64,000 bases of DNA from Escherichia coli (GCF_044324785.1 NZ_CP172127.1), one strand, 5' to 3'; shown: positions 723 through 13,233, counted from the stretch's first letter. The notes: a model not told the origin generated them from the letters alone. Made by a program: numbers and translations.

Positions 723-3235
723 TGCCAGTCGTACCAACAGTATCCGGACGTCAGGTTGAGAGTCGTGGAGTTCAGTCAGCAGGCTTGCAGACGTTTTCTC
801 AGCAAGGTATTGGTGATGCTTTTGTTCGGGCAGGGACAGAGGCAATTGATGTTTTGGGGCAGGCAAAACAGCGTGCCAATATCGCTCTGGCTCAGGAGGC
901 ATCTCTTAACCTCAGTCAGATAAGCAGCGATCTGCTGAATAATCCTGAAACAGGATTGCTTAACCTGAAAGGGAAAAATGCTATTGGAAAAGGCCATGAG
1001 TATACGCAGCAGTTTGATGCTCAGGTCGAACAACTGGCTATGTCGCTGCCGGATGAACAGGCTCGTAATGCTTTCATGCAGCAGGCGCAGCAGCAGCGCA
1101 TTCAGTTCACTACGCAGGCCGGGCGACACGAGATAGGGCAAATTAATGCCTACGAAGAAGGCCAGTTTCAGGCGACACTGCTGAACAATGGTAAAAATGC
1201 CGCAGCATTGTATGGCGACAACGCCGCATACGTATTGGCTAACAAACAAACTTTCCAGCAAATTGAGGAGTACGGTGTTGCACATGGCTGGAGCAACGAG
1301 CAAATCCAGGCCAAGAAAATCGAGTTTAAAGAGAAGGTTGCTGATGCTGCATTGTCCCAGTGGTCGGCAAACAATGCGACCGCATTCATCCAAAGTAATG
1401 GCGAGTTAAGTGATACTGCTGCTGGAGCTCGCCGTGCTGTAGCAGATAGTGACTCTTCCGAGCGTGCCCGTGGCATACGCAACAATAACCCAGGAAATCT
1501 CGAATACAGCAAAACTAATCCGTGGGTAGGCCAGACCGGTGATGATGGTCGATTTGCTAAATTCGAAACACCTGAACACGGGATTCGTGCATTAGGGCGG
1601 AACCTGATGTCGTATCAGAGGCAGGGTATTGATACCGTCAGCGAGATAATTAATCGCTGGGCACCGCCTGCTGATAAAAATGACACTATGTCGTATATCA
1701 AAGCAGTGTGCGAACAACTTGGCGTTTCTGCTGATGAGCCTCTCGATGCATCTAATCCTGATACCCTGAAGGCGCTTTGTGCAGCCATTATCCATCATGA
1801 GAACGGTAGCCAGCCATACAGTGATCAGCAGTTAACTGCTGGTGTCAGTGCAGCACTTGGTTTATCAACAATTCCAACCAACACCAAACGCTATACCGGT
1901 AATGCAGCATTCGATGCGGCATCTCCTGAGGCGCAGGCAAGTTTTATGCGACAGGCGGATCAACTGCGTCGGCAGCAGCAGGCTGAATATAAAACGATGA
2001 TTGACAGCCAGGTTCGCGATGCGACAGCTGCGTATATGCGTGGCGTTGAATTTCCTAACCCACCTGGTGAGGCTGATTTTATTGCAGCTTATGGAGTAAG
2101 AGAAGGAAACCTGCGATATACCGAGTTCAGAAATACGCAAATCGCCGGACAGTATATAGGCTCTTTCCGCAACATGCCGACAAGCAGCATTACAGCATAT
2201 GTTGAGCAATTACGCCCGGATACTGGTGAGACAGGGGAGGGTTATGCGGCACGAGCCGCTCTTTATGACAACGTTGTGTCGGCTGCAAGTCAGGTGATAA
2301 AGCAGCGACAGGCTGATCCTGTACAGTTCTCTCTTGCCGCCGGACAGACAAAGCCTATCGACATGAGCAATAAGGATAACTTTGGACAGAGCGTTGCCTT
2401 GCGTGCTGCTCAGGTCAGTGACCTTGCTAAGTCATATGGCACTCCACTGACGTTCTTTTCCAAAGACGAGGCCAATCAGATCGGTGTTTTCTTTCGTGAT
2501 GCGCCCGTTTCCCAACAGGCAGCATATCTCGATACCATCAGGCAGAGCACTGGTGGTGGGCAGGTGTATATGTCAGCACTACAGCAGATCAGTGCCAACG
2601 CTCCATCTGCTGCCGTTGCCGGGATACTGATGGATAAGCCAGGTGGTATTTTGGCAGAAAAAAACTGGTTTAATCCGGATGTTTCCGTGTCTCCTGAAAC
2701 CGCTGCGCAGACAATTCTTGCTGGCGCGGCGGCTCGTAAAGGTACTGATGATGCGAAAGGTATTCCGATGCCTAAAGATGCTGATCTTCGCCTTGAGTTT
2801 TCTGACATGGTGAAGGATGCATTTGCTGGTGACGCTCAGGGGGCATCAATGGCATACGAGATCGCAAAGGATTATTACGCTGGTGTGATGGCGAAAAAAG
2901 GCGTGGTATCAGGCGAAATTGACAATGATGTCTGGAAACAGGCTGTTAACGTAGCTACAGGTGGCGTGCATGACTATAACGGAATGGGGAATGTCCTTTT
3001 GCCGTGGGGAATGTCTGCAGAGCAATTCGATAAGCAGGTTAATCAGGCTTGGAATGAACAAGTTGTCGGCTCTGGGATAAAAACACCGCCTGGTCAGTAT
3101 GGTTTGCAAAGTTACGGCGATAGTCAGTACCTGGTGAAACTTGGTACTGGTTATCTGCTGAAAGATGATGGTTCTCCCGTTGTTCTTAATCTGACACAGA
3201 AGCGTCAGAGATTCTCCGGAGATATTCCGCAATGA
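722..3235 (+). CDS. Large phage virion/ejection (core or tail-hub type) protein, about 837 aa
   Basis: ORF 647..3235 with likely start at ATG 722 overlapping upstream stop; coiled-coil-like Gln/Ala-rich stretches; conserved-looking NNNPGNLEY segment. Confidence 0.5.
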   Translation: MPVVPTVSGRQVESRGVQSAGLQTFSQQGIGDAFVRAGTEAIDVLGQAKQRANIALAQEASLNLSQISSDLLNNPETGLLNLKGKNAIGKGHEYTQQFDAQVEQLAMSLPDEQARNAFMQQAQQQRIQFTTQAGRHEIGQINAYEEGQFQATLLNNGKNAAALYGDNAAYVLANKQTFQQIEEYGVAHGWSNEQIQAKKIEFKEKVADAALSQWSANNATAFIQSNGELSDTAAGARRAVADSDSSERARGIRNNNPGNLEYSKTNPWVGQTGDDGRFAKFETPEHGIRALGRNLMSYQRQGIDTVSEIINRWAPPADKNDTMSYIKAVCEQLGVSADEPLDASNPDTLKALCAAIIHHENGSQPYSDQQLTAGVSAALGLSTIPTNTKRYTGNAAFDAASPEAQASFMRQADQLRRQQQAEYKTMIDSQVRDATAAYMRGVEFPNPPGEADFIAAYGVREGNLRYTEFRNTQIAGQYIGSFRNMPTSSITAYVEQLRPDTGETGEGYAARAALYDNVVSAASQVIKQRQADPVQFSLAAGQTKPIDMSNKDNFGQSVALRAAQVSDLAKSYGTPLTFFSKDEANQIGVFFRDAPVSQQAAYLDTIRQSTGGGQVYMSALQQISANAPSAAVAGILMDKPGGILAEKNWFNPDVSVSPETAAQTILAGAAARKGTDDAKGIPMPKDADLRLEFSDMVKDAFAGDAQGASMAYEIAKDYYAGVMAKKGVVSGEIDNDVWKQAVNVATGGVHDYNGMGNVLLPWGMSAEQFDKQVNQAWNEQVVGSGIKTPPGQYGLQSYGDSQYLVKLGTGYLLKDDGSPVVLNLTQKRQRFSGDIPQ

Positions 3236-5034
3236 GTTACTTTGGCCTTAATCCAGTAAACCAGAATCAGCAGCTTGACGAAGCAGCATCAAATCCAGCT
3301 GGCTTTAACAGCGATGTTGGTTTTTTCGACAATGCTGTAGGAGCGGCATTGTCTGGTTTGTACTCCGGGCTGGTGGCAAAGCCAGATCAGTTGCTATGGG
3401 CAGGGATGGATAAAATCGTATCCCCGATTGCTCAGTTTATTAACGAAAACACCTCGCTCAATGATACTTCAGTTTCATACATTGCCGAGCAGAGAAAACT
3501 AGCAGAGCAGCAGGTTAAGCGGCTGACGCCTGATGCCGCGACAACCGGAACCGCCGGGCAGGTTCTTTATGGGTTGTTCGATATGGGCGGGCAGGCTGTT
3601 GTCGGTACAACGCTCGGTGGTCCTGTCGGAGGTGCAGCGGCGGTAACTTCGCTACAGGGTTTTTCTGAGTTTGAACGGCTGACAGCACAGGGTGTTGATT
3701 TCAGGACGGCGCAGGAAGCGGGATTAGTGCAGGGCATTACTGCTGGTGCCGGAACACTGATCCCTATGAGCCTCGGGTTACGTGCTGGTGGTGCGCTGGC
3801 GGAAGGTGTGGCGGCTCAGCTTGCGCGGGCGGGTGAGAGTTCAGTGCGACGCGCCGCAGCAACAGCAGTACGTGCAACGCCAGATATTGCCTATGCCGCA
3901 GGTACAAATATTGCGTTCGGTATGGCACAGCGTGGGCTTACTGCAAAAACACTTCGTGATGGTGGCTATAGCGAAATGGCTAACCAGTATGATGTGTTGG
4001 ATCGACAGGCAATTGCTATTGATGCTGTTCTTGGGGTGGCGTTTGGTGGTGTCGGCAGATTTATTAACTCTCGCGGCGAGTCTACAAGCGCACCAAATTT
4101 TTCACCAGTTGATGTTGATGCTGCACTGGCGGCGAATGCCGCTCATCATGCTGAAATTGATATTGCGCCCGGCGTGCCGATCAACGTGCTTTCGCGCAAT
4201 TCTCACATTCAGGCTCTGCGAAAAGCTATGTCTGATGTTAGCCAGGGGAGACCTGTAGACGTTGCCAGCATTGTTGAGTCTGCATCTTTCAGTGAAATTC
4301 CTGGGCGCAAGAGTCTGCTGTCTCAGGCAGTTAATGAGGCTCTGTCATCTGTAGATGATGGAGTAACGGCGCGCGCTATAGAAAATCGGTTGCTTGAAGA
4401 ACAGGCCGCGCAGCTTTTGCCGCGTGGCGATAGACAGGTTTACCAGTCTGAAATAGCTAATAGCCAACGAATTATTGAAAATCTCACTGAACAGCGCGCA
4501 CAAATTCTTGCAGAAGAGCCAACCGGTAGCGGTAAATCTTTGTCTCGTGCTCGATCAGATAAACAGGTCAGACTTCGCGATATTGACCAACGAATCCGGC
4601 AGGCACAAGAACGCCTGGAATTTTCCCGTAACGCGTTGGCACCGCATGAGCCTGGCGGTCAGTTTTTTGAAGCTCGAGCAGAACTGGCACGGAGACAGCA
4701 GGCTGAAAGTGAACTTAATGCTCAGGCTGTTTCATTCTATAAAACAGCAGAGGTCAGGACGCCAGACGAAGTAGCTCCTTTTGAGCCTGATAAAATATTG
4801 CAACAGGCAGAACAAAAAATGATGGCGGATCAGGCAGGAGATATTGATCTGCGCATAGCTGAAGACTCGCTGCTTGAATCACCTGACATGATAATCACCG
4901 TGCTGGATGATGATGGTAATCCACAATCGCGCAGCGCGCGTGAAGTACTGGATGAAGCGAACAGGGAAAGTGAGCAGGCAATACAGGATTCCAGCCTGTT
5001 TGATGTCGCTGTGGCGTGTTTCTTGAGAGGTTAA
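3232..5034 (+). CDS. Phage virion/ejection protein, 600 aa, Gly/Ala-rich N-terminal half and charged coiled-coil C-terminal half
   Basis: ORF track; ATGA overlap with upstream stop. Confidence 0.5.
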   Translation: MSYFGLNPVNQNQQLDEAASNPAGFNSDVGFFDNAVGAALSGLYSGLVAKPDQLLWAGMDKIVSPIAQFINENTSLNDTSVSYIAEQRKLAEQQVKRLTPDAATTGTAGQVLYGLFDMGGQAVVGTTLGGPVGGAAAVTSLQGFSEFERLTAQGVDFRTAQEAGLVQGITAGAGTLIPMSLGLRAGGALAEGVAAQLARAGESSVRRAAATAVRATPDIAYAAGTNIAFGMAQRGLTAKTLRDGGYSEMANQYDVLDRQAIAIDAVLGVAFGGVGRFINSRGESTSAPNFSPVDVDAALAANAAHHAEIDIAPGVPINVLSRNSHIQALRKAMSDVSQGRPVDVASIVESASFSEIPGRKSLLSQAVNEALSSVDDGVTARAIENRLLEEQAAQLLPRGDRQVYQSEIANSQRIIENLTEQRAQILAEEPTGSGKSLSRARSDKQVRLRDIDQRIRQAQERLEFSRNALAPHEPGGQFFEARAELARRQQAESELNAQAVSFYKTAEVRTPDEVAPFEPDKILQQAEQKMMADQAGDIDLRIAEDSLLESPDMIITVLDDDGNPQSRSAREVLDEANRESEQAIQDSSLFDVAVACFLRG

Positions 5035-5039
5035 ATTAA

Positions 5040-7514
5040 ATGAGACAGGAATGTATACAAGCGGTCCAGCAGGCGGCGCAGCGCACGTTAACGGCGCGAG
5101 AAATACAGAACATTGAAGACCGCATTTATCGAAATATGCGCTCCATTGCTCGTGATGACCCGATGTCGTGGAGACAACTTTCCGAATCAGAGCGGCTATA
5201 TCGTGCAGCACAATTGGCATCTGAAGAATTACAGCGAGAAGCGGCATTAAAGAAACGTCGTGTGGCCCTCACTATAGCCGCACGTCAGAGATTGGATAAA
5301 TTTATCAATAGCTATCAAGGGGCTGATGGGAAACTTGGCGCTCTTAACCGTACTATTGCTTTTAATGCAGACGGTAAATCGAATTTCCTCTCTGTTGAAT
5401 CCAGAACAAAAGCCACTCGTGATTATGCATTGAGTCAATTGCAGGAGGCATTTGAAGCAGTTGATCCTCGCTTTTTTGGCCTGTTTGAAGATGAAGCTGG
5501 CGTGCGTGACCTGGTATATGAAATGCGAGGGCAAAATACTGGCAATGCTAAAGCAAGAAAAGGTGCTAAGGCGTGGAGAGAAGTGACAGAGCTACTGCGC
5601 CGCCGGTTTAATGATGCTGGTGGGGACATTGGCTATCTCGAAAACTGGGGGCTCCCTCAACATCATTCTATGGAAAAGGTTGGGGCGGTATCAAAGGATA
5701 AGTGGGTTAGCGATGTTATAGGTAAGCTGGATCGCAAATATTATACCCGAGTCGATGGACAACTGATGAACGATGCCGAGTTGTCTGCATTTCTTGGAGA
5801 GGCTTATAACACGATCGCTACTGGTGGGCTGAATAAGCTTACTGATACCGGAATGCGAATTTCCGGCGCACGTGCTAACCGGGGTAATGCATCACGACAG
5901 ATACATTTCAAAGATGCAGATTCCTATCTGCAATATCAGCAACTTTATGGCGATCGCTCTCTATGGGAAATCATGGTCGGTCACCTGGAAGGTATCAGTA
6001 AAGATATTGCACTGGTGGAAACATATGGCCCAAACCCCGATCATGTTTTCCGCTCTCTTCTTGATCAGGTGAAGGCAGAAACGGCAACAGCTAACCCGAG
6101 TAAAACCGGTAAAGTCGAGCGGCTGGCGAACAACACAGAGAATCTGTACAACTTTATTTCCGGAAAGACACAGCCTGTAGCGAATCCGCACATCGCGCGA
6201 TGGTCTGACAATATCCGCAACTGGCTGGTTGCCAGCAGACTCGGATCCGCGTTGCTGTCATCGTTCTCTGATCTTGGAACCATGTATCTGTCTGCGAAGG
6301 TTACCAACCTTCCAATGAACCAGTTATTCCGCAACCAGCTTGAAGCTATGGACCCAACGAACCGTACAGAACTTGCGCGGGCGCGCCGCGCTGGTCTGGC
6401 GATGGAATCTCTACTTGGCAGCGTTAACCGCTGGGCGATGGATAATATGGGGCCGTCTGTGTCTCGTTGGGCTGCAACGGCGGTAATGCGTGCCAGTGGG
6501 CTTACAGCATGGTCAGATGCGCACAAGCGCGCCTATGGCGTAACCATGATGGGAAGCCTGGGAGAAGTAGTGTCACGGACACCAGACCTTCGTAGCCTCG
6601 ATGATTCTGATTTTCGTATCCTGAAAAGCAAAGGGATTACTGACACAGACTGGAGCGTATGGAAGCTGGCGCAACAGGAGGACTGGGGGAACGGTAATAA
6701 TACGATGCTGACACCGGAAAGCATTATGCGTATCCCTGATTCAGCAGTTAAACATCTTGGTGAGCCTGAACGCGTGAAATTTGAGGCAATGCGTAAACTG
6801 CTCGGTGCCGTAACTGAAGAAGTTGATATGGCTGTTATTACACCGGGTGCACGTGAGCAACTGATAACCGGTTCTGGTATTCAGCGTGGAACATGGAAAG
6901 GTGAATTAACGAGAAGTGTTTTCCTGTTTAAATCGTTCCCTATCTCGGTGGTTATGCGTCACTGGTCACGCGCTATGGGTATGCCGTCGGCTGGTGGGCG
7001 TGCGGCATATATTGCGACGTTTATTGCCAGTACGACCATTCTTGGCGCTTTGTCGCAGCAACTTAACGACCTTGCGTCTGGTCGTAATCCTCGCGAGATG
7101 ACAGGAGAAGATGCTGCTAAATTTTGGCTTGGTGCTCTACTGAAAGGTGGTGGTCTTGGCCTTTACGGTGACTTTTTATTGTCAGATCACACTAGGTACG
7201 GAAGCGGCGCGCTGGCGTCGATGCTTGGCCCGGTAGCTGGTCTGGTTGATGACGTAGTGAAGATTGCTCAGGGCATACCGTTAAATGCTGTGGAAGGGAA
7301 GAATGAGCAGACTGGTGGTGATCTGGTTAAGCTGGGGAAAGGTCTGATGCCAGGTGCGAATCTCTGGTACTTAAAGGCGGCTCTCGATCACATGATCTTT
7401 AACCAGATGCAGGAGTATTTTTCACCAGGTTATTTGCGTAAAATGGAGCAACGTTCGAAGAAAGAGTTTAACCAGACATACTGGTGGCGACCACAGGATG
7501 TCACTCCGCAATAA
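5040..7514 (+). CDS. Large phage virion/ejection protein, 824 aa
   Basis: ORF track; RBS gagagg upstream; last gene of coupled block. Confidence 0.5.
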   Translation: MRQECIQAVQQAAQRTLTAREIQNIEDRIYRNMRSIARDDPMSWRQLSESERLYRAAQLASEELQREAALKKRRVALTIAARQRLDKFINSYQGADGKLGALNRTIAFNADGKSNFLSVESRTKATRDYALSQLQEAFEAVDPRFFGLFEDEAGVRDLVYEMRGQNTGNAKARKGAKAWREVTELLRRRFNDAGGDIGYLENWGLPQHHSMEKVGAVSKDKWVSDVIGKLDRKYYTRVDGQLMNDAELSAFLGEAYNTIATGGLNKLTDTGMRISGARANRGNASRQIHFKDADSYLQYQQLYGDRSLWEIMVGHLEGISKDIALVETYGPNPDHVFRSLLDQVKAETATANPSKTGKVERLANNTENLYNFISGKTQPVANPHIARWSDNIRNWLVASRLGSALLSSFSDLGTMYLSAKVTNLPMNQLFRNQLEAMDPTNRTELARARRAGLAMESLLGSVNRWAMDNMGPSVSRWAATAVMRASGLTAWSDAHKRAYGVTMMGSLGEVVSRTPDLRSLDDSDFRILKSKGITDTDWSVWKLAQQEDWGNGNNTMLTPESIMRIPDSAVKHLGEPERVKFEAMRKLLGAVTEEVDMAVITPGAREQLITGSGIQRGTWKGELTRSVFLFKSFPISVVMRHWSRAMGMPSAGGRAAYIATFIASTTILGALSQQLNDLASGRNPREMTGEDAAKFWLGALLKGGGLGLYGDFLLSDHTRYGSGALASMLGPVAGLVDDVVKIAQGIPLNAVEGKNEQTGGDLVKLGKGLMPGANLWYLKAALDHMIFNQMQEYFSPGYLRKMEQRSKKEFNQTYWWRPQDVTPQ

Positions 7515-7523
7515 GGAAGTGTT

Positions 7524-7697
7524 GTGTTTTTAATTATTTTGAGTGTGATAATTTCTGGTGGATTGTTATTTATTGACCGCTACAAATATTTTCTTAACCC
7601 TCAGACTCAAGCTATTTGCTGGTTCATCTTTGTTGTGCAGGGAGTAGTTCTTGTTGCAAGCCTTATTGAGGGGAGGCCTCTTATTTTTACTGGGTAA
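7524..7697 (+). CDS. Small hydrophobic protein, 57 aa, GTG start
   Basis: AAGGAAG 4 nt before GTG 7524; translation is almost entirely hydrophobic; not in ORF track (<60 aa). Confidence 0.3.
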   Translation: MFLIILSVIISGGLLFIDRYKYFLNPQTQAICWFIFVVQGVVLVASLIEGRPLIFTG

Positions 7698-7710
7698 ATT
7701 AGGTGACTAC

Positions 7711-8007
7711 ATGCAAGCTATAGGATTCATTGTTTATATCGTCGTTGGTCTTTTTCAGTTGGCAGCAATTATGGCTGGGCTTGAATCATGGTGGGGATTG
7801 CACTGGATAATTGCAGCCCCCATTGCTTTCATCGTGAGCTATATTCCATTTGTTGGAGCGATTGTTGGTATGGTTGGCGCTGTGGATGTATGGCGGTGGG
7901 AGTGGTGGCAGGCTGGCCTTCTCTTCTTTGGTGGGATCATCTTTGCTATTGTCTGCGGTGGAATGTCATCATTTTTCGAATGGCTATCATTCAGAAAAGG
8001 GACGTGA
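7711..8007 (+). CDS. Small integral membrane protein, about 99 aa (candidate superinfection-exclusion type)
   Basis: ORF 7651..8007; likely start ATG 7711 after AGGTGA; several hydrophobic segments. Confidence 0.45.
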   Translation: MQAIGFIVYIVVGLFQLAAIMAGLESWWGLHWIIAAPIAFIVSYIPFVGAIVGMVGAVDVWRWEWWQAGLLFFGGIIFAIVCGGMSSFFEWLSFRKGT

Positions 8008-8015
8008 CATGTCAC

Positions 8016-8040
8016 AGGCCGCTTTCGCGGCCTTGTTTTT
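8016..8040. terminator. Hairpin plus T-tract terminator, likely bidirectional
   Basis: aggccgc-tttc-gcggcct followed by tgttttt directly after stop at 8007. Confidence 0.55.
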
Positions 8041-8200
8041 AACGAATGCCACCGCCGCCTGGGCGGGAATCCGCAGAACGCCCACCGCAGCGTGAGCCGT
8101 CAGCAGCAGTGTCGCTGTCGTGCTGACAACGACCGGCAAAGGCCTGAGTTGAAGCTACCAGAGACAACAAAACGAACAGTGCAGCAAATGCTTTTTTCAT
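8039..8200 (-). CDS. Small exported peptide, 53 aa, signal peptide with AFA cleavage motif and two-Cys Gly-rich mature part
   Basis: Internal ATG 8200 of ORF 8039..8272; N-terminus MKKAFAALFVLLSLVASTQAFA; own promoter. Confidence 0.3.
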   Translation of the reverse strand: MKKAFAALFVLLSLVASTQAFAGRCQHDSDTAADGSRCGGRSADSRPGGGGIR

Positions 8201-8241: not shown

Positions 8242-8267
8242 TGAGTGTAGCACTGACTTTTGTTTCG

Positions 8268-8293
8268 TCCACAAAAAAGCCCGCAGCGCGGGC
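8268..8293 (-). terminator. Rho-independent terminator of the two-gene cassette
   Basis: Minus strand GCCCGCGCUGCGGGC hairpin followed by UUUUUUG, overlapping stop codon at 8293-8295. Confidence 0.6.
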
Positions 8294-8733
8294 TATTCTT
8301 CTTCATCATTAAAAAGCGGATTGTTGTTTCCATCTGATGAAAGGAAAGGTATGTGTTCTCTTGAAAATCCAACAATGACAATTTCATTATCATTTTTTGC
8401 ATAATGAATGCATTCATTAGAATGCCTTCCGCCAGGGTTGAAATTTAAGTTAATGGTATAATTCTTAAATGTGTTTGGATACCATGTTGGCCCACAATGA
8501 TAATGCCAATAATTCTCTTGCTCATAATTGTCTGAGCCGGGAATTTTATCATGGTTATCATCAACCCACGAGGGCTTGTTTTTTCCAACAAGCGCCCTTC
8601 CATTGGCAACATCCTCTAAAAAACTTTGTATGATTTTTATTTCATCATCAGTAAGGAAAGGTCCGTCTACAGCGAAAGGGGTGTTGCTTTCCCCATGTAG
8701 AAAACTATTAGATATTCTAATGTTAAACTTCAA
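8293..8733 (-). CDS. Unknown 146-aa protein, no internal Met, proposed TTG start, acidic C-terminus (AT-rich cargo gene)
   Basis: Frame of ORF 8293..8874; AGGAG 6 nt before TTG 8733; upstream part of the 193-aa ORF overlaps a better-supported small gene in another frame. Confidence 0.45.
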   Translation of the reverse strand: MKFNIRISNSFLHGESNTPFAVDGPFLTDDEIKIIQSFLEDVANGRALVGKNKPSWVDDNHDKIPGSDNYEQENYWHYHCGPTWYPNTFKNYTINLNFNPGGRHSNECIHYAKNDNEIVIVGFSREHIPFLSSDGNNNPLFNDEEE

Positions 8734-8753
8734 GGAAAACTCCTGATGTGCTT

Positions 8754-8921
8754 CTATTTGGAGCGAAATGCCGCCTTGAAGTCGCTGAAAGATGTTCCTG
8801 TCTGGTAAACCATATCCTTGTCGCGCTCTTTGCTTGCGCGGCCAAGCATAACTTTTCCAATGACATCCCAGCATTGCTTGGCTTGTTCATTGTGCTGAGT
8901 ACGATTTTTCAACGCTGTCAT
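8754..8921 (-). CDS. Unknown small basic protein, 55 aa (MTALKNRTQHNEQAKQCWDVIGKVMLGRASKERDKDMVYQTGTSFSDFKAAFRSK)
   Basis: ATG 8921 preceded by AAAGGAGG at 7-nt spacing; hand-translated; below ORF-track length cutoff. Confidence 0.45.
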   Translation of the reverse strand: MTALKNRTQHNEQAKQCWDVIGKVMLGRASKERDKDMVYQTGTSFSDFKAAFRSK

Positions 8922-8947
8922 ATCGCGCCTCCTTTACCTTTAAGGTA

Positions 8948-8976
8948 ATAGTACGCTATTCACCCACAGTCTGCAA
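8948..8976 (-). promoter_or_regulatory. Sigma70-like promoter of the two-gene cassette (TTGCAG, 17 bp, TACTAT)
   Basis: Minus-strand reading about 27 nt upstream of ATG 8921. Confidence 0.4.
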
Positions 8977-9020
8977 TCTGTACAGAATTATTTAAAGGCA
9001 CATCCCTGTGCCACCGCCCG

Positions 9021-9713
9021 TCAGAAGAACCCTGCTTTGTCGTTGATGTACTCCGCGTGCGTCTGGATATCACGCAGGCATTTGCTCACACCGACGATGT
9101 AGCAGAACATGGTGGTCAGCTCCGCCGCCGCGCCCGATACGTCGTGCCCGTCTTCCTGTAACTGGTTCAGCAGATTCATCAGCAGTGAGTTCTCCGTCAG
9201 GCCGAGAACACCAGACGGCGAATGAATCAGGCTGCGGTAGCCGGGCTTCAGCGGGGCGCTGTAGGTTTTGTTCTCTATCTTCATCGCCTGCATTACTGCT
9301 GACGCCGTGGCGTTGGCTACCTGGTCGGCAACCATCTTTATGCGTTCTTCCTGCGGGAGCGAGTTTTTAATGTAACTTCCGGTGCGACGGATCTGAGGAA
9401 GAACCTCACCTGTAACCCATTCAAGAAATCTGAATGCTCTCGTTCCCTCTGTCATTGCCTCTTTGCAACGCAGAATAAGGATGTAGAGACCTGATTCTGA
9501 AACGATGGATAGTTCTTGTATTCCACCAGGGGTCTGTATTGAATACAGCCCCTTTTTGTTCCAGCCTTTTTTATCAAGTTTTCTCGCTTGTGTAACATCA
9601 ATATTCAAAGCATTGCACACATCTTTGGTGACAAACCAAGGTTCTCCGTCAATCATGAACATACGGATCTGGCAGGATGACTCAAAGGAAAAGATGGAAG
9701 GTTTGGTATTCAT
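9021..9713 (-). CDS. Bro-N domain antirepressor-like protein, about 230 aa
   Basis: N-terminal FSF...IR..MIDGEPWFVTKDVCNALNI matches Bro-N/phage antirepressor signature; start ATG 9713 after AAGGTGA. Confidence 0.7.
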   Translation of the reverse strand: MNTKPSIFSFESSCQIRMFMIDGEPWFVTKDVCNALNIDVTQARKLDKKGWNKKGLYSIQTPGGIQELSIVSESGLYILILRCKEAMTEGTRAFRFLEWVTGEVLPQIRRTGSYIKNSLPQEERIKMVADQVANATASAVMQAMKIENKTYSAPLKPGYRSLIHSPSGVLGLTENSLLMNLLNQLQEDGHDVSGAAAELTTMFCYIVGVSKCLRDIQTHAEYINDKAGFF

Positions 9714-9857
9714 GGCGATCACCTTTGTAGTTAGGTTAATCACCACCGCTGAGACCAATCAGATGGTGGTGAACTGTGCAGAGTTGGTCTTACCGGCTAC
9801 AAAGGAACCCGGCGCACCTTTCGGTGCCCCCACACAGCCCACCATAGAATAGGTGCG

Positions 9858-9876
9858 CTTTACACATAAAAAAACC
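9858..9876 (-). terminator. Weak candidate terminator (4-bp GC stem plus U7) ending the LexA-controlled transcript
   Basis: Minus strand GCGG-auaa-CCGC then UUUUUUU. Confidence 0.3.
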
Positions 9877-9890
9877 GCTTATGCGGCATA

Positions 9891-9944
9891 TGTGCCTCTG
9901 TAGTAATCCGGGAGACCAATCCCGGCACTGGATTTTGCCAGTGC
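9891..9944. other. Three-way-junction forming element: 7-bp outer stem enclosing two 6-bp hairpins
   Basis: tagtaat / ccggga-gaccaa-tcccgg / cactgg-attttg-ccagtg / attacta, all perfect complements. Confidence 0.4.
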
Positions 9945-9960
9945 CTGATTACTATGGCAC

Positions 9961-10023: not shown

Positions 10024-10281
10024 TTATCTGGTTTGTTTTCGTAATTGTTCGGCACAATAGTCTAGATGTGTTTGCAGATCCTGCATAGACATCTGTGAGC
10101 TGGTGACGTAGTTAATCAGTGCAGTCAGTTCGGCAAGTGGGCCATCGACATTAAATCCATCCTTATCGAGATCCCGGAGTAATTTCATCAAGTGCGATCC
10201 CTCCACCAGTGACCTGACGCCTCCCGGCGTGTGAATCCTTTCGGTAAATCCGTCTTCCAGTGGATAGTGATACTGCTGCAT
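10024..10281 (-). CDS. 85-aa protein, stand-alone paralogue of the C-terminal domain of the Bro-N protein; candidate SOS-induced antirepressor
   Basis: ATG 10281 after GGAGAAG; alignable to residues about 170-230 of the 9021..9713 product; LexA box 22 bp upstream. Confidence 0.55.
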   Translation of the reverse strand: MQQYHYPLEDGFTERIHTPGGVRSLVEGSHLMKLLRDLDKDGFNVDGPLAELTALINYVTSSQMSMQDLQTHLDYCAEQLRKQTR

Positions 10282-10302
10282 CTTATCTTCTCCATGCAAT
10301 AA

Positions 10303-10476: not shown

Positions 10477-13233
10477 ATGACGGTCTCAACCGAAGTTGAC
10501 CACAACGAATACACCGGTAACGGCGCTACGACATCATTTCCGTATACCTTCCGTATTTTCAAAAAATCCGACCTGGTTGTTCAGGTGTCTGACCTGAACG
10601 GGAACGTAACAGAATTGGTTCTGGATACCGGTTATACGGTAACTGGGGCGGGCACTTATAGTGGCGGTTCTGTTGTTCTTCCGTCGCCGCTTGCTGCTGG
10701 ATGGCGAATTACGATAGATCGTGTGCTTGATGTAGTGCAGGAGACAGACCTTCGCAATCAGGGAAAATTTTTCCCCGAAGTGCATGAAGATGCTTTTGAC
10801 TACCTGACGATGCTGATCCAGCAATGTTTTGGGTGGTTCAGACGTGCATTGATGAAACCATCTTTGCTTGCAAAATATTACGATGCAAAGCAAAACAGAA
10901 TTTCTAACCTTGCAGATCCATCACTTGAGCAGGATGCTGTAAATAATCGCTCAATGCGTAATTATGTTGATGCTGCAATCGCCGGAGTTGTTGGTGGTTT
11001 TGGTTGGTTTATTCAGTATGGTTCTGGAGCAGTATACCGAACGTTCCAGGATAAGATGCGGGATAACGTTAACGCTCTTGATTTTGTTCCGTTTGAGCAA
11101 AGATATGCTGCATTAAATTTTGAAGTTGATGCGTCTGAATGGTTAATTAATGCGATAAATTCTGGTGCAAGTGTCGTTAGAATACCTGCAGGTAAATGGA
11201 TGATTTCTAAGAACATAGATGTGCCTCCTGGAGTGTCATTAATTGGTGATGGCATTGATTATTGGGATACATATAGACCAGCGCCTGAAAGATTATTAAA
11301 AAGTTGGAGTAAAGGAACCCATCTTGTATTTACTGGTGATGGAGAAAAAAACAAATATTTTTTTAACATCTCTAATGAAAGACCAGTTAAAATTGTTGAA
11401 GGGATATCTTGTAAGTTCACTGAGTTTACAAATGAAGATTCTGTAGGTGTTACTCCTGCTACACCAAAAGCCATGAGCGTAGCTGTTAGTATCAACAGGG
11501 CATCACAGTTACGCAACCTGAGAATAATGGTAAGTAAAAATGGTATTGAAGGATACAATAACCCTGATTCTTATTCATTGGGTGATGACTGGGATATAGG
11601 GTTGCATGTATACGATAGCTGTGATTCAGTTATTGATAACGTACAGATTGTCGGCTATTGGAGGGTAAAAGGACTACTACTGACAGAAAATGACGGGAGC
11701 CTTTCAATGAAGGGAAATCCTGAAAAAACGCACTTTAATAACGTTTATGTCCAGTCAGGGATCGCGATAAGGAATAGCCCTCAGATTGATCTTGTAAGTA
11801 ATACTGAAAGCTCAGTGACATTTAAACATAAAAAGTCGATGAGAATAACTTCAGTTAAACAGTTTAAAATTGCTGGCAGTGAATTAGTATATACGTATTC
11901 AGATGCATCATTTGATGGAACTAACATCACACTATCTGGTATTTCTCCTGAAATACAAGGTACAATAAGTGTAATCAGGTTTCCGTCAATTGGTAATAAT
12001 TTTAGCGGGACTGTTTTTGAGAATACAGTAGCCACTACTCTTGATCATACATCAGGTAAGCCATCAGAATACTTTGGCCTTCCTGCATCCTTTGCATTAG
12101 AGGTTGATGGTTTCCCTGTTCGTAATTTAAGGTTTGATAAATTCAAAGCTCAAACAACATTTGATAAAGGAAATTGCATTTTTGGTGATTGCCGTGATGT
12201 TAAAATAACATCATCTGAGTTTGAAAATGGAATTATGATTGCGTATAACCTGACCGAGACTCAGGGTTATACAGGAAATCTTAGATTTTTTGCTTCTGAT
12301 CTTCAGAGCAGCGTTAACACAAGTGAGTTTAAACCAAGAGACGCATTTGTAGACAATAGACAAATAAAAACGGAGTTTACTGATGGTTCGTTCATTATAA
12401 AGAACTGGAGGCCTACAGATACAAAAATACAATGGTCGTCTGGAGCAGATGCTATTGTTCTTAGAGAGTCACCTGACGAACAATCAAACGGAAATATTTA
12501 CGGGCATCACATTGATGGTAAAAGATGGATTAATGTTAGTGGATATAACAAAGATATAAATATTTCATCAAGAAACTTAAGCGTAAAAAACCATGGTGAT
12601 GACTCTGCAGTTATTAATATATTCGGCGACTCTGGAAATATTGCCATTAAAGGTAATTTTTCACCAATTATTGATAACAGCAAATCTCTTGGTGCACCAT
12701 CATTTAGATGGGCACAGGTTTATTCTGCGAACGGTTCGATAAACACATCAGATGGTAGAGAAAAAAGTGAACCGATTAGTACAAGTGAGCTCAGCTTGTA
12801 TATGTCTCGTGGTTATGAAGGTGATGCAATTCTGGATGCATGGGGAGATATCAGGATTGTAGCTTTTCGCTGGCTTGATGCCGTCAGGGAAAAGGGAGAT
12901 GGTGCCCGCTGGCATTTTGGTGTTATAGCACAACAAGTGAGAGACGCTTTCCTCGCGCATGGGATTGATGGAACCAGATTTGGCCTTCTCTGTTACGATG
13001 AATGGGATGATAAATACGCGCCAGTGATGGCGGTAAGGATGATCACTAAAGTTGTGGATGGCGTCGAAATTGAGATGGAAGAAGAATACGAAACAGAAGA
13101 GCGAACTCTGGTTTGCAAGGCTGGAAATAGGTGGGGTATCCGTACTGACCAGTGTTTATGGCTTGAGTCAGCTTATTTGCGTAGAAGAATCGAAAAAATA
13201 GAATCACGTCTTGCAATGCTTGAAAGTAGCTAA
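10477..13233 (+). CDS. Tailspike/tail fibre, 918 aa: T7 gp17-like N-terminal anchor, AT-rich central receptor-binding part, C-terminal intramolecular chaperone (peptidase S74-like) domain
   Basis: ORF track; GGAG RBS; N-terminal pattern resembling podovirus fibre anchors; C-terminal SDGREK motif region; GC drop in the middle. Confidence 0.8.
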   Translation: MTVSTEVDHNEYTGNGATTSFPYTFRIFKKSDLVVQVSDLNGNVTELVLDTGYTVTGAGTYSGGSVVLPSPLAAGWRITIDRVLDVVQETDLRNQGKFFPEVHEDAFDYLTMLIQQCFGWFRRALMKPSLLAKYYDAKQNRISNLADPSLEQDAVNNRSMRNYVDAAIAGVVGGFGWFIQYGSGAVYRTFQDKMRDNVNALDFVPFEQRYAALNFEVDASEWLINAINSGASVVRIPAGKWMISKNIDVPPGVSLIGDGIDYWDTYRPAPERLLKSWSKGTHLVFTGDGEKNKYFFNISNERPVKIVEGISCKFTEFTNEDSVGVTPATPKAMSVAVSINRASQLRNLRIMVSKNGIEGYNNPDSYSLGDDWDIGLHVYDSCDSVIDNVQIVGYWRVKGLLLTENDGSLSMKGNPEKTHFNNVYVQSGIAIRNSPQIDLVSNTESSVTFKHKKSMRITSVKQFKIAGSELVYTYSDASFDGTNITLSGISPEIQGTISVIRFPSIGNNFSGTVFENTVATTLDHTSGKPSEYFGLPASFALEVDGFPVRNLRFDKFKAQTTFDKGNCIFGDCRDVKITSSEFENGIMIAYNLTETQGYTGNLRFFASDLQSSVNTSEFKPRDAFVDNRQIKTEFTDGSFIIKNWRPTDTKIQWSSGADAIVLRESPDEQSNGNIYGHHIDGKRWINVSGYNKDINISSRNLSVKNHGDDSAVINIFGDSGNIAIKGNFSPIIDNSKSLGAPSFRWAQVYSANGSINTSDGREKSEPISTSELSLYMSRGYEGDAILDAWGDIRIVAFRWLDAVREKGDGARWHFGVIAQQVRDAFLAHGIDGTRFGLLCYDEWDDKYAPVMAVRMITKVVDGVEIEMEEEYETEERTLVCKAGNRWGIRTDQCLWLESAYLRRRIEKIESRLAMLESS

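Follow-up and report, generated by a model that had tools for sequence, protein, structure and literature searches.

Which function can be attributed to a pair of small genes lodged between the virion genes of a prophage but read from the opposite strand, and to whom do the signals that express them belong? This question is raised by a window of 64,000 nucleotides (nt) from Escherichia coli (GCF_044324785.1 NZ_CP172127.1), in which two adjacent open reading frames, designated here ORF-A and ORF-B, occupy the minus strand between the ejection-protein genes and the tailspike gene (Table 1; all coordinates count from the first letter of the window). The reading that we favour, with a probability of roughly 60%, is that the pair represents a type II toxin–antitoxin system of a sequence family not described before, composed of a toxin of RelE/ParE fold that is probably an mRNA endonuclease and of a minimal antitoxin that binds it directly, and that it is one of several interchangeable cargos of a backbone expression socket located at the end of an antirepressor operon. 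We infer that ORF-B is toxic and acts as an RNase, that ORF-A neutralises it directly, and what the biological role may be. The toxin–antitoxin reading is backed by a predicted RelE/ParE-type fold of ORF-B, an obligate partner gene, the Panacea neighbour of a remote relative and YafO-type pairs in the same slot. An earlier interpretation of this DNA made without database searches (the sequence-only reading) had likened the layout to that of toxin–antitoxin modules, and the same evidence speaks for it.

A conserved gene pair on the minus strand

The sequence-only reading described a two-gene accessory module, placed on the opposite strand in a prophage cargo slot. This description holds. The PGAP/RefSeq annotation of E. 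coli 702/18 contains exactly ORF-A and ORF-B at this place, both as hypothetical proteins, and the PHROGs profiles 8607 (ORF-A) and 5954 (ORF-B), two families of unknown function, align end to end from the called starts. Substitutions relative to homologous loci fall mainly on the third codon position, with counts for positions 1/2/3 of 8/8/25 in ORF-A and of 24/11/72 in ORF-B, the latter against relatives of about 75% nucleotide identity. ORF-A and ORF-B are real genes under purifying selection, because the PGAP calls, the end-to-end PHROGs alignments and the third-position substitution bias all point to it.

The statement that neither protein could be placed in a family, and that the first gene had escaped the ORF track, was thus half right: Pfam contains no match for ORF-A or ORF-B, and NCBIfam and PADLOC have none for either of them, for their neighbours or for the other cargos of the slot, but PHROGs families and RefSeq hypothetical proteins exist for both. 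The abortive-infection and anti-defence alternatives mentioned by the same reading received no support from the defence-system models of PADLOC-DB v2, which matched neither ORF-A nor ORF-B. A literature search with the protein accessions and the PHROG identifiers gave no match, and the published SieA paper is silent on the slot. A profile of ORF-B run against 1.84 billion representative proteins retrieved only 118 relatives, and those present in AFDB50 are all labelled uncharacterized. In complete E. coli genomes, the ORF-A/ORF-B cargo was found in 76 of 5,426, the flanks of the slot in 469 and the first of the YafO-type cargos described below in 61; no plasmid carriage of the ORF-A/ORF-B cargo was found in PLSDB.

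The translation signals of the two genes differ in strength. ORF-A is preceded by a strong, near-perfect Shine-Dalgarno sequence (AAAGGAGG), as had been noticed, although at a spacing of 6 nt from the ATG and not 7, and its start is always ATG across the homologues compared. The gap between the two genes is short, as stated before, but measures 20 nt rather than 21. All the features ascribed to ORF-B are present, namely 146 codons with no internal methionine, an AGGAG motif 6 nt upstream of the start, whose context is kept in E. coli relatives, and an acidic NDEEE tail at the C-terminus. The start is TTG (GTG in Erwinia) across the Enterobacterales homologues, which share 57-99% protein identity, and all homologues as well as the PHROG profile begin at this position; TTG 8733, already proposed by the sequence-only reading, is accordingly assigned as the true start of ORF-B. 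The longer form of 193 amino acids (aa) starting at ATG 8874, which that reading had left as an option, was rejected, since relatives with 95-98% identity have stop codons that close the extension. A strong ATG-initiated ORF-A followed by an ORF-B with a conserved weak start is the pattern expected of a toxin kept below its antitoxin: translation from an ATG with a near-perfect Shine-Dalgarno sequence, as opposed to a weak TTG, would set the level of the antitoxin above that of the toxin.

Predicted fold, partnership and proposed function

Profile and structure searches, which the sequence-only reading had suggested as a check, gave a mixed outcome, with negative results from the sequence libraries and a predicted RelE/ParE-type fold for ORF-B. 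An AlphaFold2 model built on a 28-sequence alignment was confident, with a predicted local distance difference test score (pLDDT) of 92.3 and a predicted template modelling score (pTM) of 0.86, and it assigns ORF-B a predicted α/β fold of the RelE/ParE superfamily, with an inserted loop (residues 82-107) and an acidic tail; the top-ranked proteins of a Foldseek search were without significance. Four motifs, G50-K-N-K-P-S-W56, Y75-W-H-Y-H-C-G81, I109-H-Y111 and S124-x-x-H127-x-P-F130, precede the NDEEE tail. H77, H79 and H127 do not vary among 52 diverse members, and each of G50, N52, K53, S55, H110, Y111, P129 and F130 is conserved in at least 90% of them. In the model, the conserved residues map to the central strands and to positions immediately behind the last strand, which is where RelE, YoeB, YafQ and HigB have their catalytic lysine, histidine and tyrosine residues. 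The conserved residues of ORF-B would therefore fit an RNase, a mapping made from strand order.

On this basis ORF-B would be a toxin, most probably an endoribonuclease of RelE, YoeB, YafQ, HigB or YafO type, which may cut mRNA, probably on the ribosome, by means of a putative active site formed by the invariant H77, H79 and H127 and the nearly invariant K51, K53 and Y111. It is very unlikely that the pair is a toxin–antitoxin system whose ORF-B is ParE-like and poisons DNA gyrase, or acts on some other non-RNA target: the predicted fold belongs to a superfamily that includes ParE, but the conserved residues point to RNase chemistry. Membership of the YafO family was suspected from a motif resemblance (GKD/GKN, xHxH, LxY and a C-terminal histidine) and from the slot mates; the resemblance is without statistical support, Pfam is negative and two hhalign comparisons gave probabilities of 0.1-0.2%, so that this assignment was rejected. 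ORF-B is filed under the fold superfamily only, and not under YafO or any other member family.

The toxin–antitoxin reading draws further on the constancy of the partner. A domain resembling ORF-A is encoded directly upstream in all of the approximately 100 related loci fetched with an intact ORF-B, at distances ranging from small overlaps to gaps of 31 nt, the overlaps occurring in loci of the Aeromonas type. Family members of ORF-B lie mostly in phage contigs. As a pair, the two genes occupy several settings: E. coli, Pectobacterium and Serratia have them in P22-like slots, lambdoid prophages of Klebsiella in the nin region, Proteus beside a replication gene, and Erwinia persicina at a non-phage chromosomal site between accA and a core metabolic gene. 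Two adjacent and co-oriented small genes that are inherited as a unit in different contexts are the generic mark of a type II system, and ORF-A and ORF-B are of this kind. In addition, 13 nt separate the gene of the remote ORF-B member P0145 from an upstream gene whose product has the SocA/Panacea antitoxin domain PF13274; other remote members have upstream partners of 57-65 aa. Panacea is a promiscuous antitoxin domain that neutralises dozens of unrelated toxins (PMC8832971). Broken genes were also counted for a toxin: the ORF-B homologue is split into fragments of 45 and 47 aa in Canicola haemoglobinophilus and related contigs (L020, L066, L069), and the YafO-type toxin gene occupying the slot of viral contig L111 is split into ORFs of 121 and 108 aa.

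ORF-A is predicted to consist of a helix (residues 2-25), a short strand (36-37) and a second helix (45-53), and would neutralise ORF-B by direct binding. A linker-fusion AlphaFold2 model (ORF-A, a 30-residue linker and ORF-B, with 25 paired rows) reached a pLDDT of 84-96 over ORF-A residues 11-50 and a whole-chain pTM of 0.78, which suggests a defined complex. In Pasteurellaceae phages the partner takes a longer form: in L023, L074, L083 and about 40 other loci, the ORF-A-like domain makes up the last ~40 aa of proteins of 159-194 aa, whose N-terminal parts have no match. The forms of 184-194 aa match phrog_18778 (unknown function), Pfam was negative for the long partner, and these proteins possess a hydrophobic N-terminal stretch (LKVAAMSALFIAPLA) that is unusual for an antitoxin. 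An RNA antitoxin or a riboswitch within the cassette was rejected, as Rfam yields only a chance match to Trp_leader (E 0.38).

Several observations weigh against this interpretation. The first is the lack of a sequence link to a known toxin family: ORF-B has no match in Pfam-A even at E <= 10, NCBIfam and PADLOC are negative for it, a sequence-profile search of the PDB returned chance matches only, hhalign against the YafO alignment gave a probability of no more than 0.2%, and none of 20 remote relatives matches any toxin family. The association of P0145 with Panacea concerns a single locus. The scores of the fusion model come without a control, a predicted aligned error or a contact read-out. 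For ORF-A, Pfam and NCBIfam give no DNA-binding domain, and its helix-strand-helix layout is neither ribbon-helix-helix nor helix-turn-helix; classical autoregulation is unlikely, because ORF-A has no DNA-binding fold and one promoter region is common to unrelated cargos. Type II antitoxins without a DNA-binding role are known as exceptions, PaaA2 being an example. Finally, the charges of the two proteins, an acidic ORF-B and a basic ORF-A, are the reverse of those of classical RelBE pairs. This reversal does not set the pair apart, because the YafO-type cargos of the same slot share it and the remote members of the ORF-B family are basic.

A published mutant bears directly on the question. 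The stretch is 99.8% identical to phage phiv142-3 of the avian pathogenic E. coli strain DE142, the annotation of which (MN187550.1 6498-6656) misses ORF-B and calls instead a 52-aa 'Orf10' (QGF19616.1) inside ORF-B in another frame. This 52-aa orf10, together with the 55-aa ORF at 8445..8612 (minus strand), was rejected as a gene; it is an artefact, because stop codons interrupt its frame in relatives of 75% nucleotide identity and the third-position bias belongs to the frame of ORF-B. The published primers carry homology arms of 60 nt that correspond to 8604-8663 and 8385-8444, so that the deletion made in DE142 Δorf10 removes the core of ORF-B, including the GKNKPSW and WHYHCG motifs (PMC7724020). 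Li et al. reported that Δorf10 grew like the wild type in lysogeny broth (LB), that the orf10 transcript was 2^4.12-fold (~17-fold) higher in chicken serum than in LB, that serum survival of the mutant was ~60% with kps transcripts ~2-fold lower, and that its blood and heart loads were 7-8% of those of the wild type (PMC7724020). Normal growth in LB after loss of the core of ORF-B fits ORF-B as the toxin and not as the antitoxin. The loss of fitness in serum is not obviously predicted by a silent toxin–antitoxin pair; it is a further point against the interpretation given above and keeps a regulatory one alive.

In this alternative, ORF-B would be a lysogenic-conversion or regulatory factor of RelE fold and not a growth-arresting toxin. 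It might be an RNase of mild or selective action that alters what the host expresses, capsule genes and serum resistance included, and ORF-A would serve as its chaperone or modulator. The phenotypes of the deletion mutant, the induction of the transcript in serum and the acidic nature of ORF-B, unusual for a ribosome-binding toxin, all argue for this alternative. We nevertheless consider it unlikely. The authors aimed at a spurious out-of-frame ORF, and their complementing clone, built around orf10 and ending at its stop, cannot encode the full ORF-B; the effects were of modest size, and the publication gives no detail on polarity or scar effects that concern the membrane-protein gene downstream. 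A toxin accounts better for the strict association with a partner gene, for the Panacea neighbour and for the YafO-type pairs found in the slot. The orf10 of phiv142-3, to which serum resistance in avian pathogenic E. coli had been attributed, is an artefact of the wrong frame, and the phenotype attached to it needs re-examination.

A backbone socket for exchangeable cargos

The sequence-only reading regarded the locus as a self-contained cassette carrying its own promoter and terminator, and this is the part of it that did not survive: the hexamers, the leader of about 15 nt and the terminator are all backbone. Comparison of the window with phage TL-2011b reveals near-identity across the antirepressor-like gene, the hairpin that follows it, the promoter-like hexamers and the 15-nt leader, up to 8933, where it stops; identity restarts at 8298 with GAATAG and covers the terminator as well as the membrane-protein gene beyond it. 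The 5' junction TACCTYAARGGTAA and the 3' junction formed by GAATAG and the hairpin (window 8933-8976 and 8272-8298) enclose at least five cargos that are unrelated, and the 29-nt promoter-like string recurs without a mismatch in 38 viral contigs with different cargos (L102-L139). Promoter-like site, leader and terminator are assigned on these alignments to the phage backbone, leaving only ~8932..8299 as the exchangeable unit; the expression signals belong to the phage, because the flanks are constant while different cargos sit between the same junctions. A moron carrying its promoter and terminator with the insert was rejected on this junction analysis. The segment is more AT-rich than its surroundings, as had been seen before: GC content is 0.396 in the cargo, against 0.508 for the whole window and 0.50 and 0.49 for its two flanks.

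As for the signals themselves, the sigma-70-like hexamers TTGCAG and TACTAT exist with the 17-nt spacer previously reported, but they agree with the consensus at only 7 of 12 positions, below the 9-of-12 threshold of the promoter scan, and were hence not listed by it; the scan listed GTGGCA-16-AATAAT at 9014..8987, ~30 nt upstream. That the former acts as a promoter is plausible. The hairpin and U-tract that had been placed at the end of ORF-B are there, and the 39-nt segment 8300..8262 has a minimum free energy (MFE) of -14.4 kcal/mol (z = -2.4). This hairpin is common to four of the five cargo types, the third type being without a canonical one, and its 3-nt loop reads GCT in some variants and AGC in others. 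A second hairpin, just after the stop of the antirepressor-like gene, is identical in all variants and part of the conserved backbone; its folding energy is not significant (z = -1.55), and it may be a weak terminator or an operator.

Besides the ORF-A/ORF-B pair, two cargos encode a YafO-family toxin, of 181 aa in the first, where it accompanies a 59-aa protein, and of 170 aa in the second, where its companion has 108 aa. A further cargo consists of one 210-aa protein only, and another combines proteins of 69 and 288 aa, the latter with hydrophobic segments. The YafO family is represented only among these slot mates (TL-2011b gp44 and P0162 relatives); in their cargos the larger protein is slightly acidic, and the small one encoded upstream is very basic (pI 10.0 and 10.6).

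The most likely role of the ORF-A/ORF-B pair in the lysogen would be to abort infections, to defend against superinfection or to stabilise the prophage. The pair has no transcription signals of its own: it sits in a fixed socket that P22-like (Uetakevirus) coliphages provide for expression, located where the C4/IsrK–antirepressor operon has its 3' end. Read-through transcription is possible because of this position. The same position, with read-through at induction, is compatible with a module of the phage life cycle or of counter-defence, in which ORF-B would act during lytic growth (for instance in host shut-off or by inactivating a host defence) and ORF-A would be its regulator or escort; the prevalence of the family in phage contigs and the presence of cargos that are not obviously toxin–antitoxin pairs (the 210-aa protein and the 69-aa plus 288-aa pair) agree with such a role. 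Against it stand the occurrence of the pair at a non-phage chromosomal site in Erwinia, the relative paired with a Panacea antitoxin, the lack of any anti-defence homology among the matches found and the fact that the module is dispensable and replaceable among otherwise near-identical phages, so that we hold this role to be highly doubtful.

A broader proposal would join the socket to the serum phenotype. The constant promoter, the TACCTYAARGGTAAA leader and the terminator (GAATAG and hairpin) would serve as fixed junctions of recombination and expression for unrelated two-gene effector modules that P22-like coliphages exchange with one another, and ORF-B would be, instead of a classical growth-arrest toxin, an acidic RelE-fold enzyme with a histidine triad that is induced by serum in the lysogen and reprograms host mRNA pools, raising serum resistance and virulence. 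As a whole, this proposal appears quite unlikely.

Table 1. Positions of the features discussed, in order along the window.
Feature	Coordinates	Strand	Remarks
Ejection-protein genes	3232..7514	+	One flank of the ORF-A/ORF-B locus
Gene of a 98-118-aa protein	7651-8007	+	phrog_3075 (unknown function)
Terminator of the preceding gene	8016-8033		
Gene of a 53-aa protein	8039-8200	-	Longer ORF to 8272; phrog_14503 'membrane associated protein'
Intrinsic terminator	8272..8294	-	Stem AGCCCGC/GCGGGCT, 7 bp (6 G-C), loop 3, T6; overlaps the ORF-B stop
ORF-B	8293..8733	-	146 aa, TTG start, stop 8295..8293, isoelectric point (pI) 4.9, phrog_5954; predicted toxin
Exchangeable cargo (~634 nt)	8299..8932	-	Part of the Shine-Dalgarno sequence, ORF-A, spacer and ORF-B to its last two codons
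Segment deleted in DE142 Δorf10	8445..8603	-	ORF-B codons 44-97
ORF-B Shine-Dalgarno AGGAG	8740..8744	-	
ORF-A	8754..8921	-	55 aa, ATG start, pI 9.8, phrog_8607; predicted antitoxin or binding partner
Leader and 5' junction	8933..8947	-	TACCTYAARGGTAAA; identity of the socket variants stops after 8933
Sigma-70-like promoter candidate	8948..8976	-	TTGCAG 8976..8971, TACTAT 8953..8948; backbone
Hairpin GGCACA-GGGA-TGTGCC	8997..9012	-	MFE -9.9 kcal/mol
BRO-N antirepressor-like gene	9021..9731	-	Conserved backbone
C4 antisense RNA (RF01695)	9762-9849	-	78.6 bits
IsrK-like small RNA (RF01394)	9868-9944	-	74.7 bits
C4 a1/b1 target element (RF03163)	within 9762-9957		Sub-threshold, 38.4 bits (gathering score 46.7)
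91-aa ORF	10024-10299	-	phrog_450 and phrog_15539
Tailspike gene	10477..13233	+	Other flank of the ORF-A/ORF-B locus

The surroundings of the socket contain further elements. The Rfam matches to C4, IsrK and the a1/b1 target element lie directly upstream of the BRO-N antirepressor-like gene, and the stretch 9762-9957 together with this gene is a C4/IsrK–antirepressor immunity module of P1/P7 or Gifsy-1 type in a P22-like prophage. Between these RNA elements and the tailspike gene, a 91-aa ORF represents a stand-alone copy of the C-terminal domain of the BRO-N antirepressor-like protein, the same two PHROGs matching both. Just past the terminator, a small backbone gene, kept behind every type of cargo, encodes a 53-aa product with an N-terminus resembling a signal peptide or a membrane anchor and with a tail rich in Gly, Ser, Asp and Arg; a weak, sub-threshold match links it to the His-Xaa-Ser repeat protein HxsA3. 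A plus-strand gene that follows the last ejection-protein gene without interruption, and is closed by a terminator, encodes a protein with hydrophobic, membrane-like segments. In P22, this is the position of sieA, and by analogy the product is a possible superinfection-exclusion protein.

Relation to known systems

The present analysis gives a testable function to PHROGs families 5954 and 8607, which are found in prophages of many Enterobacterales, Pasteurellaceae and Aeromonas, and would extend the RelE/ParE toxin superfamily by a branch of novel sequence, with a minimal antitoxin that is also new. It also describes expression signals that are owned by the phage, with a coding cargo swapped at fixed junctions, and anchoring on these junctions should be useful to find more cargos.

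The closest counterparts are YafN–YafO and the YafO-family (PF13957) pairs of prophages such as TL-2011b gp45/gp44. They share with ORF-A/ORF-B the two-gene layout with the small protein first. The prophage versions also pair a larger, slightly acidic protein with a partner that is very basic, and in sister phages they occupy the very same socket, with identical junctions on the promoter and on the terminator side. YafO is a ribosome-dependent mRNA interferase (PMC7781912), the activity proposed here for ORF-B. In contrast, ORF-B has no detectable homology to the YafO family, and ORF-A is unrelated to both YafN and gp45.

Compared with RelBE, YefM–YoeB, DinJ–YafQ and HigBA, ORF-B is ~55 residues longer, with its loop and acidic tail, is acidic overall and, unlike the mRNA interferases of the RelE superfamily, falls in no Pfam family. 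The antitoxins of these systems carry ribbon-helix-helix, helix-turn-helix or Phd/YefM-type domains, whereas the small basic ORF-A has none of them. PaaA2–ParE2, from the paaR2-paaA2-parE2 operon of an E. coli O157:H7 prophage, possesses a separate regulator gene and its ParE2 hits gyrase; no third gene accompanies ORF-A and ORF-B, and the conserved residues of ORF-B suggest RNase chemistry instead.

PanA–PanT systems resemble the remote ORF-B superfamily member that is paired with a PF13274 protein, and because of this pairing the ORF-B superfamily may be counted among the toxins that swap antitoxin partners (PMC8832971), although ORF-A itself has no Panacea domain (PF13274/DUF4065). Finally, the locus looks like a moron of lambdoid phages, in that an AT-rich accessory unit lies between virion genes with a promoter-like site and a terminator at its sides. 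The difference is that here the flanking signals are constant, and it is the cargo between them that is exchanged at fixed junctions.

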